From NCBI GenBank assembly GCA_934130435.1, contig CAKOYB010000002.1:115609-179608 (forward strand): 64,000 nucleotides of DNA, given 5' to 3'. Below the pieces are notes generated by a model. It had not been told where the DNA came from. It saw only the letters and a program-made list of their open reading frames with translations, and did no database searches. The position numbers and the translations under genes are program-made. Below, in pieces: positions 5,668-9,866 of this stretch. This DNA comes from an uncultured Clostridia bacterium (lineage in GTDB: Bacteria > Bacillota > Clostridia > TANB77 > CAG-508). Positions within the stretch are counted from its first letter, which is position 1, and every line of letters starts with the position of its first letter.

Positions 5668-6318
5668 TTAATTACATATATTTTTAATATATTGACTAAA
5701 TGCCATTTTTCCATATTTATTATCAAATCTTTCTAATTCTTCTTCATAGCAGCTATCATCCATATACATATCTAGTAATTTATTTTTACCAATCATTTTT
5801 TCAAGAGCTTCTACATATCCCACAATGTCCTTGTAGCATTCATTTAGCCAGTATTGTTTATTTGTTCCATTTTTATCTTGAAATACATATTCTGGTGTTT
5901 TATTATTTATACGTGCCGTAAAATATTGAACAAAGGCTTCTTCTAGTAACATTATATTTATATTTTTATTTAAAACATCAATATATTTCTGAGGAATTTT
6001 TTCAAAACAGCTTCCTTCCTTTTGTATAAAATGAAATAGTTCATGTTCTAATATGTATTTAAATTGAGTATTATCCTTAATCTCTTTAAAAAATACTATA
6101 TATTCTCTTTTACTCGAAGCTTGATATTTACTTTTATTATATTCTTTTTTTATCTCTTTCAATTCTTTAAGTCTATTTAAAATTCTATTTATATACTTTT
6201 CTCCATAAGTTTTATTAAAGTTTTTACAAAATTCAACGATACAGTCTGTTACTCTCTTTTCCCATTTTCTATTCTGATACATTTTTCTAATTTGATTTTC
6301 GATTTCCTCTTCTGGCAT
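5668..6318 (-). CDS. HExxH-motif protein, possible zinc peptidase. Last gene of the radical-SAM cluster.
   Basis: ILEHELFHFIQ motif with downstream acidic residues (EEAF). A strong AGGAGGGAA Shine-Dalgarno. Sits immediately downstream of the candidate precursor peptide. Confidence 0.4.
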   Translation of the reverse strand: MPEEEIENQIRKMYQNRKWEKRVTDCIVEFCKNFNKTYGEKYINRILNRLKELKEIKKEYNKSKYQASSKREYIVFFKEIKDNTQFKYILEHELFHFIQKEGSCFEKIPQKYIDVLNKNINIMLLEEAFVQYFTARINNKTPEYVFQDKNGTNKQYWLNECYKDIVGYVEALEKMIGKNKLLDMYMDDSCYEEELERFDNKYGKMAFSQYIKNICN

Positions 6319-6341
6319 AATATTCCCTCCTATAAATAAGT

Positions 6342-6368
6342 AGAGGAGTACACTATGAATACTCCTCT
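6342..6368 (-). terminator. Hairpin (9-bp stem, 9-nt loop) between the peptide gene and the HExxH gene. Possible attenuator or partial terminator.
   Basis: agaggagta / tactcctct inverted repeat, followed by a T-rich tract on the minus strand. Confidence 0.35.
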
Positions 6369-6381
6369 GTAATCAAACATT

Positions 6382-6456
6382 CTAATCCCTTTTTGGTAAT
6401 CTACTATAATAGCAATAATGACCACAAGCCATTGCAGAAATGATTAATTTTACCAT
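6382..6456 (-). CDS. Unannotated 24-aa peptide MVKLIISAMACGHYCYYSRLPKRD. Candidate RiPP precursor.
   Basis: AAGGAGGTG Shine-Dalgarno 7 nt upstream of the ATG, overlapping the stop of the upstream radical-SAM gene. Two Cys and three Tyr residues. Below the 60-aa cutoff of the ORF track. Followed by a hairpin. Confidence 0.55.
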   Translation of the reverse strand: MVKLIISAMACGHYCYYSRLPKRD

Positions 6457-6468
6457 ATTCTCACCTCC

Positions 6469-7821: not shown

Positions 7822-7855
7822 TTTTCTATTGACTTTTCATAGTTGGTCTCCAATC

Positions 7856-9118
7856 TTATTTTATAAAACAATAAGGTTCTTCTGCTTTAAACTCTTTGTA
7901 ATAATAATATTTATTAGCTATACAACCTCCATTGCAAAGGTTATTATTTTTGCATATCAAGCATTTTTCATTATCTTTATTAGACTCAAATAAATTTCTT
8001 AATTCATTTGCTTTTTCAGACTGCCATATTTCTTTTAAATTATTTCTTTTTACATTTCCAATTGGTACATTTAAAAAAGAGCAAGGTACCACATCACCAT
8101 TAGGTTGTATTTCCATTGTATTTTTTAAAGCTTCACAACTATATTTCATACTAAGTGTTTCAAATGTTGTTTTTAAATTTTCAAATAATTCCCTAGCGCC
8201 AAATACCGGTCTTATTTGAAAATTTGTTTTACTTCCTTTTTCTAATATCTCTATTACTTTTTGATGCATTTTTATAATAAACCCTTTATATTCTTGACTT
8301 GAAAGCATCATTTCTTTATCAGCTCTTCCTATTGGGCAAACCGGAACAATAGTCTGATGGCTTATTTTCAAATCTGCCAATATTTCCATTAGTTCCAACA
8401 ATTCTTGTTGATTAAATTTTGTTAATGTTGATTGAACTCTTACTTCTATACCATATTTTTGGAAATTCTTTATTGCTTTTATAGCTTTTTCATAAGCCCC
8501 TTCATAATTTCTAAATTTATTGTGAAACTTCTCTGTTCCATCTATTGATATTTTGGCCATATTTAGTCCAGCCTCTTTTAATTGTCTTGCCTTTTCACAT
8601 GTTATTAAGCTTCCATTTGTAGTCATTGTAATTCTCGGAATTTTACCTTTTACATATCTTATATAACTAATTAAATTCGGATTAGTAGTTGGCTCTCCTC
8701 CTGTAAAATTTAGTTTTAATAATTTAATTTCCATCATTTGGTCTAGTATATTATAAATTTCATTTGGCTTTAAATCGCTTTTCTTGGCATTAGTCGAATC
8801 ATTTCCACAATGGTTGCAATTATAATTACAACCAGAAGTAATTCCCAAGGTCATATAAATTGGTTCACTCGTGTATTTTTCACTTTTTCCCTCAAATTCT
8901 TCTTTATAATTTTTTAGTGGAACAATAAAATGCTTTTTTTGGAATTTATATATTGTATTGTTTTCTTCTACTTCGGCCGAATGAATTGCATTATAAAATT
9001 GTTGGCCTTCATTTTCTATATCTAATATTTTTTCTTTTGTCTGATATTTAGAATTCATAATATAAATTCCATCTTTTTCATACCTTACTTTGGTATTTTC
9101 TTCTTTTTGAAATTTCAT
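7856..9118 (-). CDS. Radical SAM/SPASM-domain enzyme, paralog of the adjacent one.
   Basis: CNYNCNHC at residues 97-104. C-terminal SPASM cysteines. Shares an N-terminal DGIYI(L/M)N motif with the neighbouring radical-SAM protein. Confidence 0.8.
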   Translation of the reverse strand: MKFQKEENTKVRYEKDGIYIMNSKYQTKEKILDIENEGQQFYNAIHSAEVEENNTIYKFQKKHFIVPLKNYKEEFEGKSEKYTSEPIYMTLGITSGCNYNCNHCGNDSTNAKKSDLKPNEIYNILDQMMEIKLLKLNFTGGEPTTNPNLISYIRYVKGKIPRITMTTNGSLITCEKARQLKEAGLNMAKISIDGTEKFHNKFRNYEGAYEKAIKAIKNFQKYGIEVRVQSTLTKFNQQELLELMEILADLKISHQTIVPVCPIGRADKEMMLSSQEYKGFIIKMHQKVIEILEKGSKTNFQIRPVFGARELFENLKTTFETLSMKYSCEALKNTMEIQPNGDVVPCSFLNVPIGNVKRNNLKEIWQSEKANELRNLFESNKDNEKCLICKNNNLCNGGCIANKYYYYKEFKAEEPYCFIK

Positions 9119-9135
9119 ACTTTCTCCTTTCTTTT

Positions 9136-9152
9136 TGCGTATTTTTTACGCA
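9136..9152. promoter_or_regulatory. Palindromic operator TGCGTA-N5-TACGCA, copy 1, in front of the radical-SAM operon.
   Basis: Near-identical to the palindrome at 9893-9909 (shared TTGCGTA-N5-TACGCATT context). Confidence 0.45.
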
Positions 9153-9185
9153 TTGATATTATTTTTTTAAGAGAGTTATTCTCTC

Positions 9186-9866
9186 CTAAAAAATTTCTAT
9201 ATCATATTCGCCTTTTGTAACAAATTTATATAAATTTGCAGGTCTATGACCTTTTATTGATTGGGTTAATCCTGTATTTTCAATCAAATTTAATGTTAAA
9301 AACTTTTTTCTAAAATTTCTTCTATCAAATTTTTTATCCAAAATCGCTTCATATACCTTTTGCAATTCTGGCAAAGTAAAATATTTAGGCAATAACGATT
9401 TTACAATTGTACTTCTCATTATTTTGTGTTTAATTTTTTCTATTGCCTCTAATAATATTTCTCTATGGTCATAGGCTAAATCCTCTGGAACATCCCTTAA
9501 ATTAAACCATGCTGAATTTTGTGTTTTTTCAGTTTTAGTTTTTATCTTTATATTATCACTATTTACAATTCCTATATATCCAACAGCAATCATTCTCATT
9601 AAAGGAGATCTATTCGGATTACTAAAAGTATGAAATTGTTCTACATATATACCTTCAATACCTGTTTTTTCTAGCATTTCTCTTTTTATTGCAGTTTCGC
9701 AATCCTCATTATTATACACCGCTCCGCTTGGAAGCATCCATTTGTCAGTATAAGGCTTATTGCTTCTTTGAACCAATAAAACTTTTACTTCTCCCTCTTT
9801 TACCGTAAACAATGTACATACAACATGTATTCCTTGATTCTTATATAAAGGATTATTTATATCCAT
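9186..9866 (-). CDS. Nudix-domain protein with a C-terminal winged-helix domain (NrtR-like transcriptional regulator).
   Basis: Degenerate Nudix box GAVYNNEDCETAIKREMLEKTGI. A C-terminal basic wHTH-like region of about 80 aa. Flanked by the operator palindromes. Confidence 0.55.
   Translation of the reverse strand: MDINNPLYKNQGIHVVCTLFTVKEGEVKVLLVQRSNKPYTDKWMLPSGAVYNNEDCETAIKREMLEKTGIEGIYVEQFHTFSNPNRSPLMRMIAVGYIGIVNSDNIKIKTKTEKTQNSAWFNLRDVPEDLAYDHREILLEAIEKIKHKIMRSTIVKSLLPKYFTLPELQKVYEAILDKKFDRRNFRKKFLTLNLIENTGLTQSIKGHRPANLYKFVTKGEYDIEIF

Follow-up and report, generated by a model that had tools for sequence, protein, structure and literature searches.

What is made by two tandem radical S-adenosylmethionine (SAM) enzymes whose genes are followed directly by an open reading frame (ORF) of only 24 codons? 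The question is raised by a locus of an uncultured Clostridia bacterium (assembly GCA_934130435.1, contig CAKOYB010000002.1), of which we analyzed a 64-kb stretch, termed the window below; coordinates are window positions unless a locus number precedes them. An earlier note on this DNA had proposed a peptide-modifying locus with a Nudix and winged-helix regulator, two radical-SAM (rSAM)/SPASM enzymes, here called rSAM-A and rSAM-B, a small Cys/Tyr peptide and an HExxH protein. Our analysis was computational throughout, utilizing conservation, profile searches and predicted structures. It led us to the view, which we hold to be likely, that the locus is a self-regulated operon for maturation of a ribosomal peptide of an undescribed family, with rSAM-B, rSAM-A and a precursor of 22-66 residues as its core. 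The gene content and its conservation, the signs of purifying selection in the peptide gene, the folds and cluster motifs of the enzymes and the operators are direct results of these computations.

The sequence features listed in the earlier note were all found in the window, where every cassette gene lies on the minus strand in AT-rich DNA (G+C about 27% across the cassette region). Transcription would run from a promoter through the NrtR-type regulator gene, rSAM-A and rSAM-B to the 24-codon ORF, a stem-loop and the HExxH gene; the last three elements, with a Shine-Dalgarno (SD) sequence ahead of the tiny ORF, stand in the order that had been claimed. The core of rSAM-A, rSAM-B and peptide genes spans ~2.7 kb. 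The two enzymes are indeed tandem paralogs, 31% identical over their catalytic and SPASM parts and carrying DGIYIMN and DGIYILN near their N-termini. Both have the CxxxCxxC motif and the C-terminal SPASM cysteine cluster (CxxCx5Cx3C) assigned to them, in rSAM-B at residues 128-135 and 415-428, respectively, in the numbering of its 450-residue ORF (for rSAM-A, see Table 1).

Relatives of rSAM-B were gathered from 880 protein-collection matches, from the contigs of these matches and from one genome per species, and a genome scan with two peptide patterns gave at least 34 loci among 185,579 species, which is a lower bound. The loci, numbered L001 onwards, come from gut Clostridia metagenome-assembled genomes (MAGs; e.g. 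Candidatus Scatovivens), Bacilli-like MAGs, one bacterium of the Candidate Phyla Radiation (CPR; Portnoybacteria), a bin labelled Gammaproteobacteria and, in many cases, DPANN archaea (Woesearchaeota, Nanoarchaeota, Pacearchaeota and Micrarchaeota). Among them, rSAM-B can be as little as 40% identical to the window enzyme. Bacteria have the genes in the order A-B-peptide and archaea mostly in the order B-peptide-A'', where A'' denotes a second clade of partner enzymes described below. Since the rSAM-rSAM-peptide trio recurs in two domains of life, the arrangement goes far beyond chance.

The 24-residue ORF, MVKLIISAMACGHYCYYSRLPKRD, is preceded by AAGGAGGTGAGAAT. We observed a short ORF with a GGAGG-type SD sequence in 36 of 36 non-redundant loci with a readable flank, usually directly 3' of rSAM-B and in one locus ahead of the rSAM pair. 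Locus L033 was the sole family locus without the peptide ORF, and there the sequence in question is masked as a run of N. Pairwise codon differences among ten Clostridia loci were synonymous in 300 cases and non-synonymous in 17, and over all loci replacements were far fewer in the 10-codon core than in the 9-codon leader. The conserved position, the SD sequence and the synonymous excess mark the small ORF, to judge from its sequence, as a translated gene under strong purifying selection. It could be argued instead that the ORF is a chance, untranslated one, and that the locus consists of two orphan rSAM genes beside a regulator: gene callers pass over the ORF in most assemblies, and a peptide profile search found only 31 called homologues among 5.8 billion proteins, all named 'hypothetical protein'. 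Yet such an ORF would not be expected to hold its position and SD sequence throughout two domains, with the codon differences given above and a motif that is invariant despite diverged DNA, and we regard this explanation as effectively refuted. The earlier note would have given up its reading had the small ORF been missing from orthologous loci; it was conserved throughout.

The precursors share a core, G-H-(Y)-x-(Y/F)-(F/Y/L)-x-x-L-P, which follows a leader of ~10 residues. Representatives are the window peptide for Clostridia, MKVIVSKMAAGHLSYFTRLPKR for the Bacilli-type loci, a CPR peptide beginning MVKVVISAMATGHYAYFSRLPKRNKK, and DPANN peptides beginning MEVRADKFLSGHYAYFVELPERK or MAEVLVDLLQGGHYAFLEELPQR. 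Over all loci, G12, H13 and L20 are invariant and Y14 and P21 nearly so; the residue at position 16 is Y or F in every case, and that at position 17 is one of F, Y and L. The leader is amphipathic, with the pattern M-x-V/I-K/R-x-x-x-hydrophobic-hydrophobic, and the tail after the core varies from 0 to 45 residues, the Clostridia peptide ending in ...RLPKRD and others carrying long variable tails. The peptide, 56-residue archaeal forms included, has no Pfam or NCBIfam family. C11 and C15 are shared by the Clostridia clade. A few other loci keep a cysteine at one position, and outside the Clostridia clade A, S, T or G take the place of the two cysteines while G, H and L stay invariant. The neighborhood comparison suggested in the earlier note thus returned a conserved short peptide partner, but the CxxxC spacing in it, and with it the description as a Cys/Tyr peptide, did not extend beyond Clostridia.

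The cysteines bear directly on a second explanation, that of a classical sactipeptide or ranthipeptide in which the two rSAM enzymes would link the sulfurs of C11 and C15 to acceptor carbons. AlbA, the thuricin CD maturases and RumMC1/2 link Cys sulfurs to acceptor carbons. Two cysteines in CxxxC spacing in the Clostridia peptide would suit such chemistry, as would the RRE-like plus SPASM architecture common to CteB and SkfB, and two-rSAM sactipeptide systems exist (PMC12093266, PMC8188230). However, in the Bacilli-type, CPR and archaeal loci, where cysteine has given way to A, S, T or G, rSAM-B keeps all of its catalytic and cluster residues, and the conserved Cys donors expected in the precursor core of a sactipeptide or ranthipeptide are not found. 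Scores against the corresponding models were also far below their cutoffs (AlbA, 91.5 vs 850; StsB, 125.8 vs 625; PapB, 100-104 vs 340). Because the cysteines are lost outside Clostridia, a family-wide Cys thioether is excluded as far as the aligned precursors go, and the sactipeptide explanation is very improbable, being conceivable only as a clade-specific addition.

The last few residues of most long-tailed archaeal precursors, with a few exceptions, include a Tyr, in endings such as KYQA, NYMP, KYMN, NYKS, PYKA, KYQQ, QYQH, PEYK and KEGY (e.g. L017 7298-7468, L026 7289-7459, proteins P0212-P0239). This Tyr, which does not occur in the short bacterial peptides, may be a second modification site.

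In the bacterial loci checked, the stop codon of the peptide gene is regularly followed straight away by a stem-loop, which differs in sequence from locus to locus without any relationship and often has a T-run; that of the window has an unexceptional folding energy by itself (z -1.36). The stem-loop closes the core transcript and is probably a leaky terminator or a transcript-end hairpin. Its tail in the window is weak, and the HExxH gene may therefore be expressed by read-through.

We observed that rSAM-B, the universal signature gene of the cassette, combines Radical_SAM (PF04055, 1.6e-33) and SPASM (PF13186, 1.6e-11) domains with an N-domain of ~95 residues that is conserved among its orthologues. 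CxxxCxxC is invariant in 67 orthologues, as are eight further cysteines, which include Gx4C, CxxCx5Cx3C and a terminal Cys and so make up the complete SPASM set with two auxiliary clusters. In the AlphaFold (AF2) model (pLDDT 91.9), residues 5-58 of the N-domain adopt a beta-beta-beta-alpha-alpha arrangement at pLDDT about 90. Foldseek placed SuiB in complex with its precursor at the top (E 1.4e-20, 457 aligned columns, TM 0.70), ahead of PqqE, the anaerobic sulfatase-maturating enzyme (anSME), CteB and SkfB, with ChlB also among the best structural matches, and phmmer searches against the PDB agreed. rSAM-B thus has the N-domain, rSAM and SPASM architecture of peptide maturases, and the predicted topology, together with the full-length structural alignment to SuiB, points to an N-domain that is RRE-like. 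The enzymes had been likened previously to RRE-containing sactisynthases; for rSAM-B the architecture stands on structural grounds, but the thioether chemistry implied by the name falls with the lost cysteines.

The extent of rSAM-B also required correction. The ORF exists as it had been given, but orthologues and gene callers start at Met26, and the 25-codon in-frame extension results from a 95-nt insertion that is specific to this genome when compared with the 97%-identical locus L001. The insertion splits the original SD sequence and occurs once within the window.

No NCBIfam equivalog cutoff was reached by either rSAM enzyme. For rSAM-B the top match was MftC (158.5 bits vs a cutoff of 265), and PqqE gave 145 vs 381; the streptide KxxxW model, TIGR04080, gave 83 bits vs 500 with an archaeal member. 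The anSME model, at 83-98 bits vs 349, was likewise not reached, and rSAM-B has its conserved N-domain besides. By these criteria, the earlier note was right both in setting the enzymes apart from anSMEs and in finding no match to SCIFF, pyrroloquinoline quinone (PQQ), mycofactocin, streptide or sactipeptide-type families, the peptide itself being without a family.

rSAM-A matched Radical_SAM (PF04055, 1.8e-27) and SPASM (PF13186, 1.8e-15). Its N-terminal extension of ~90 residues is confined to Clostridia-type loci and is lacking in Bacilli-type and archaeal partners, so that it cannot be taken for a general feature of the enzyme, as had been supposed. In a neighbor-joining tree, the B enzymes formed one clade and their partners a clade A and a sister clade A''. 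Clade A, which contains bacteria and some archaea, has the full SPASM motif. Clade A'', with most DPANN partners (e.g. L017 7510-, L020 4955-, L036 980-), has Cx5Cx3C instead of CxxCx5Cx3C and a conserved ending CDPYCW, and its auxiliary-cluster ligation may differ from that of bacterial rSAM-A. Nearly all cassettes include a partner from one of these two clades, L037 and L021 being the exceptions.

That rSAM-A and the archaeal partner score best to NirJ2, AhbD and NirJ raises a further alternative, in which the rSAM pair would act on a non-peptide substrate of tetrapyrrole or nucleotide type, in the manner of AhbC, AhbD and NirJ, and the small protein would be an accessory subunit, scaffold or chaperone. 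The nucleotide flavor of the accessory genes (NrtR-type regulator, AAA_28 P-loop kinase, CobC-like phosphatase) and the lack of a conserved peptidase or exporter within +/-6 kb would accord with such a role. The scores themselves, however, are 140-186 bits vs cutoffs of 500, and tetrapyrrole genes were found in none of the locus neighborhoods. Moreover, the N-domain of rSAM-B is of peptide-maturase type, peptide maturases are its best structural matches, and a 10-residue invariant motif within a 22-residue product is typical of a substrate core. We consider action on a non-peptide substrate unlikely.

With regard to control of the operon, the regulator has the two domains that characterize NrtR, a Nudix-like N-domain (NUDIX, PF00293, 1.5e-14) and a winged-helix C-domain (NrtR_WHD, PF21906, 1.1e-24). 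Its Nudix box, GAVYNNEDCETAIKREMLEKTG, is nearly intact and departs from the consensus EE by reading EK; against the equivalog for ADP-ribose-responsive NrtR, NF050029, it scored 153 bits vs a cutoff of 400. Two operators of the consensus TG[CT]GTA-N5-TAC[GA]CA flank the regulator gene (Table 1) and contain the core GT-N7-AC that is described for operators of the NrtR family (PMC2330246). Elsewhere in the window there were no further sites with two mismatches allowed. Both operator positions are conserved in all Clostridia loci, operator 1 being kept at the same place in L001, L003, L006-L011, L015 and L016. The exact operator string matched one other locus only, and the degenerate form was used for comparison: half-sites alternate between GCGTA and GTGTA, many sites are perfect palindromes, and several loci have hybrid arms (TGCGTA...TACACA). 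Bacilli-type loci have related sites ahead of the regulator gene and of the first structural gene, and in L005, L012 and L013 sites like operator 2 precede a His_Phos_1 or AAA_28 gene. A TTGACA/TATAAT pair is likewise found upstream of nrtR in related Clostridia loci, and the AAGAGAG...CTCTCTT hairpin at the end of the regulator gene recurs in L001, L006-L009 and L015. An Rfam scan of positions 4500-11500 at E<=1 gave no RNA family, so that a riboswitch or leader RNA is not present there.

Because the operators flank the cassette only, the equivalog cutoff is unreached and the Nudix box has EK, we read the regulator as an NrtR-family paralogue that is dedicated to this operon. The earlier suggestion of a dedicated regulator thus gains from the conserved operators, but it is limited to the 14 Firmicutes-type loci in which the regulator gene lies beside the cassette. 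The NrtR regulators of nicotinamide adenine dinucleotide (NAD) metabolism also have Nudix and NrtR_WHD domains, a GT-N7-AC operator and an autoregulatory site at their own promoter, but here rSAM and peptide genes stand beside the operators, rather than nad, pnc or prs genes. Recruitment of the NrtR family to non-NAD pathways has precedent (PMC2330246), and the locus adds an example of such a Nudix regulator recruited to a peptide-maturation operon.

The following scheme would account for these observations. The short amphipathic N-terminus of the peptide would bind, in the form of a beta-strand, to the N-domain of rSAM-B, which would cleave SAM and abstract a hydrogen in the G-H-(Y)-x-(Y/F)-(F/Y/L) segment. 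A C-C, C-N or C-O cross-link could then be formed through the invariant His and/or the aromatic residue three positions later; alternatively, a related oxidative change might take place in the G-H-x-x-Ar segment. SuiB, PqqE and MftC form comparable cross-links on their own peptides. rSAM-A might carry out a further radical reaction on the same peptide core, and in the Clostridia clade only, the small M1/thermolysin-like zinc peptidase might trim the product. The regulator would bind both GT-N7-AC palindromes and might repress the operon until a small-molecule ligand arrives.

Several observations weigh against this view of a peptide-maturing operon. Two loci have L or M where the others have Tyr at core position 3, and the aromatic residue at position 5 may also be Phe, for which reason the reacting residues cannot be named. 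A leader of ~10 residues is unusually short for RRE-dependent recognition, and a 33-sequence profile of the rSAM-B N-domain had no PqqD/RRE matches in Pfam or the PDB. The top NCBIfam matches of rSAM-A, NirJ2 (185.9 bits) and AhbD (176.9), each vs a cutoff of 500, are both non-peptide enzymes. A second intact rSAM was not found in L037, where the partner is apparently truncated, and the contig of L021 ends before a partner could appear. Finally, all loci come from metagenome assemblies. As to L037, the ORF after the peptide (about 7420-7540) begins in a partner-like manner (MKRSLFEVAWEITDGCNLECIHCYN...) and stops after about 40 codons; the shortened partner would be either a pseudogene or an assembly error.

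The HExxH protein belongs to a family of 57 proteins, none of which falls below 44% identity to the window protein, with 11 representatives among 1.84 billion proteins. HELFH and LLEEAFVQY, with E126/E127, are invariant in 21 sequences, so that HExxH and a Glu ligand on the next helix, the hallmarks of gluzincins, are both present; LLEEAFVQY resembles what we take to be the equivalent M1 third-ligand motif, 'WLNEGFA'. Pfam and NCBIfam gave no match above threshold, and a weak PF18894 (PhageMetallopep) signal was seen in 18 of 21 members (best E-value 3.5e-5). The predicted fold is that of an M1/thermolysin-like (gluzincin) catalytic domain. We therefore describe the protein as a predicted stand-alone gluzincin, and a role as trimming peptidase is plausible on this model. 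The gene occurs in a single Clostridia clade and is missing from the Bacilli-type, CPR and archaeal cassettes, which would place it outside the core system; of the earlier proposal of a leader peptidase, the peptidase fold stands and the integral role does not. We rejected the alternative of an alpha-ketoglutarate-dependent HExxH oxygenase, such as is described for clusters of ribosomally synthesized, modified peptides (PMC12636437): there was no NCBIfam match, the predicted fold is that of a gluzincin, and the hosts, by their taxonomy, are probably strict anaerobes.

Clustering of ORFs within +/-6 kb of the loci revealed no transporters, immunity genes or universally conserved proteases, and the conserved neighbors were lineage-specific accessory genes only. 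In the Bacilli-type loci L012 and L013, a histidine phosphatase gene lies between the regulator's second operator and rSAM-A, and in L005, also of Bacilli type, an AAA_28 P-loop gene stands behind the second operator. In this bacterial cassette, the AAA_28 (NadR-kinase-like) gene directly precedes the rSAM genes, and in four archaeal cassettes a homologous gene directly precedes rSAM-B, a hint that some lineages may use a phosphotransfer step. The AAA_28 protein of L021 is extended at its C-terminus by a further domain that carries an ExExK-like GEIEGKY and is CYTH-like by eye. A kinship between the C-terminal half of the L005 AAA_28 protein and the L013 histidine phosphatase was considered and dropped, there being no similarity between them. 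In 14 DPANN loci, a protein of ~278 residues with a helix-turn-helix-like N-terminus and no Pfam family is encoded on the opposite strand near rSAM-B (e.g. L017 5008-5844, minus strand), and in several loci it is directly upstream of rSAM-B; it may be an archaeal regulator or an extra component. Redox genes surround the cassette of one Woesearchaeota locus (L040 2047-13238), namely those for two glutaredoxins, glucose-6-phosphate dehydrogenase and two pyridine-nucleotide-disulfide oxidoreductases, in this one lineage only and possibly by coincidence.

The flanks of the cassette in the window are of some interest in themselves. At 10047-11087 (minus strand) is an unusual fusion of QueH (epoxyqueuosine reductase, PF02677, DUF208) to a GNAT acetyltransferase domain. 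Positions 5335-5494, just downstream of the HExxH gene, are a remnant of the 3' end of this gene (10050-10400), 86-87% identical and with an internal deletion of ~190 nt, so that the intact gene and its remnant bracket the whole cassette. In L001 the cassette is 97% identical to that of the window and the flanks are entirely different. Taken together, the bracketing remnant and the differing flanks suggest local rearrangement or transfer of the cassette. Elsewhere, a GNAT homologue lies upstream of nrtR in L007 and downstream of the HExxH gene in L015, and polA follows the HExxH gene in L011. A mobile or phage origin was rejected, as there was no IMG/VR relative and no integrase nearby, and the flanking direct repeat is the GNAT-gene remnant rather than an att site.

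Table 1. Positions of the cassette features in the window and of accessory genes in other loci
Feature	Position	Strand	Basis or remark
Regulator promoter, TTGACA-17-TATAAT	9909..9937	-	12/12 consensus positions
Operator 1, palindrome TGCGTACTTTATACGCA	9893..9909	.	Abuts -10 box; contains GT-N7-AC
NrtR-family regulator, Nudix + winged helix, 226 aa	9186..9866	-	Pfam domains
Stem-loop GGAGAGAATAACTCTCTT, then A-run	9169..9186	-	Overlaps regulator stop codon
Operator 2, palindrome TGCGTATTTTTTACGCA	9136..9152	.	Immediately 5' of rSAM-A ribosome-binding site
rSAM/SPASM-A, 420 aa	7856..9118	-	CxxxCxxC 97-104; CxxCx5Cx3C 386-399
Insertion of 95 nt between rSAM genes	7753..7847	-	Comparison with L001
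rSAM/SPASM-B, 425 aa from conserved start (longest ORF from 7821, 450 aa)	6469..7746	-	Orthologue starts
Precursor peptide gene, 24 aa, MVKLIISAMACGHYCYYSRLPKRD	6382..6456	-	SD AAGGAGG at 6464-6470
Stem-loop, 10 bp, directly 3' of peptide gene	6342..6368	-	Hairpin search
HExxH protein, 216 aa, HELFH at residues 92-96	5668..6318	-	Clade-specific ORF
Histidine phosphatase	L012 2470-3024; L013 4144-4758		Best NCBIfam alpha-ribazole phosphatase CobC, 77-91 bits vs cutoff 163
AAA_28 genes	L005 3838-4983; L021 547-1584; L023 5471-6004; L027 3754-4284; L037 5333-5908

What the matured peptide would be used for can be approached by analogy. One possibility, which we put forward tentatively and with more doubt than belief, is that the cassette makes a peptide-derived cofactor or essential intracellular small molecule, the third after PQQ and mycofactocin, and not a secreted antibiotic. 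The two rSAM enzymes would build it on the invariant His/aromatic core, and gut Firmicutes, CPR bacteria and DPANN archaea would have it in common. The core is conserved across two domains, and such conservation is typical of cofactors and fixed-target signals, not of fast-evolving antibiotics. The precursor is single-copy with a leader of PqqA size; export, immunity and universal protease genes were not found within +/-6 kb; minimal genomes have kept the cassette; the maturases nearest to its own include MftC and PqqE; and the accessories, comprising the NrtR-type sensor, the bacterial and archaeal AAA_28 kinase and the CobC-like phosphatase, have a nucleotide or phospho flavor. Against a cofactor stand the lack of conserved downstream tailoring enzymes and the long, variable C-terminal tails of the archaeal peptides. 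A cofactor-like product, if such it were, would be relevant to minimal-genome symbionts, whose physiology is poorly understood.

We regard the cassette as a new family within the radical-SAM/SPASM-modified ribosomal peptides. Neither Pfam nor NCBIfam has a family that describes it, source annotations name both enzymes merely 'radical SAM protein', and the full-text literature, which leaves subscription-only work outside the search, held no description of this system, probably because all carriers are uncultured MAGs. New are its own precursor signature, GHYxYF..LP, and a pair of maturase clades without a curated model. Its spread over animal-gut Clostridia, Bacilli-like and CPR bacteria and DPANN archaea, with the core almost unchanged, is unusual, and if the link is His- or aromatic-centered, a new enzyme reaction would be added. 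As a small three-gene system, it can be tested directly by heterologous expression.

Among known systems, streptide (StrA/SuiA with SuiB/StrB, joined by a KxxxW Lys-Trp C-C link) shares with the cassette an N-terminal peptide-binding-type domain, rSAM and SPASM domains with two auxiliary clusters, and a short precursor encoded beside the enzyme. However, the enzymes are 17-19% identical, the peptide described here is without the K...W motif, and nearly all loci have a second rSAM and no StrC-type exporter/protease. Streptide is also a product of streptococci under quorum-sensing control, whereas the present family is found in Clostridia, CPR bacteria and DPANN archaea. Tandem paralogous rSAM/SPASM maturases beside a precursor in Clostridia are known as well from thuricin CD (TrnC/TrnD) and ruminococcin C (RumMC1/MC2), but these two-enzyme sactipeptides have long leaders and conserved Cys donors, in contrast to the variable cysteines of the present peptides, and their loci carry the exporters and immunity genes that are not found here within +/-6 kb.

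The PQQ system (PqqA, PqqD, PqqE) resembles the cassette in its precursor of 22-24 residues, of which the leader is very short and the invariant core contains Tyr, in extreme conservation of that core over a large phylogenetic distance and in the lack of export genes. It differs in that the present peptides have no E-x3-Y and their neighborhoods no homologues of PqqB, PqqC or PqqF and no pqqD gene, and in that PqqD is a separate protein whereas here the putative recognition domain is fused to the enzyme. The later steps of PQQ synthesis need O2, whereas the present family is found in probable strict anaerobes and in minimal-genome symbionts. Mycofactocin (MftA, MftB, MftC) is, in turn, a redox cofactor derived from a short, conserved, Tyr-containing peptide, as the peptide described here likewise is short, conserved and Tyr-containing, and MftC is the top NCBIfam match of rSAM-B. 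Yet that match lies below its cutoff, MftB, MftD, MftE and MftF are not among the neighbors, and the present peptide has, in place of a C-terminal GVY, an internal core that is followed by its variable tail.

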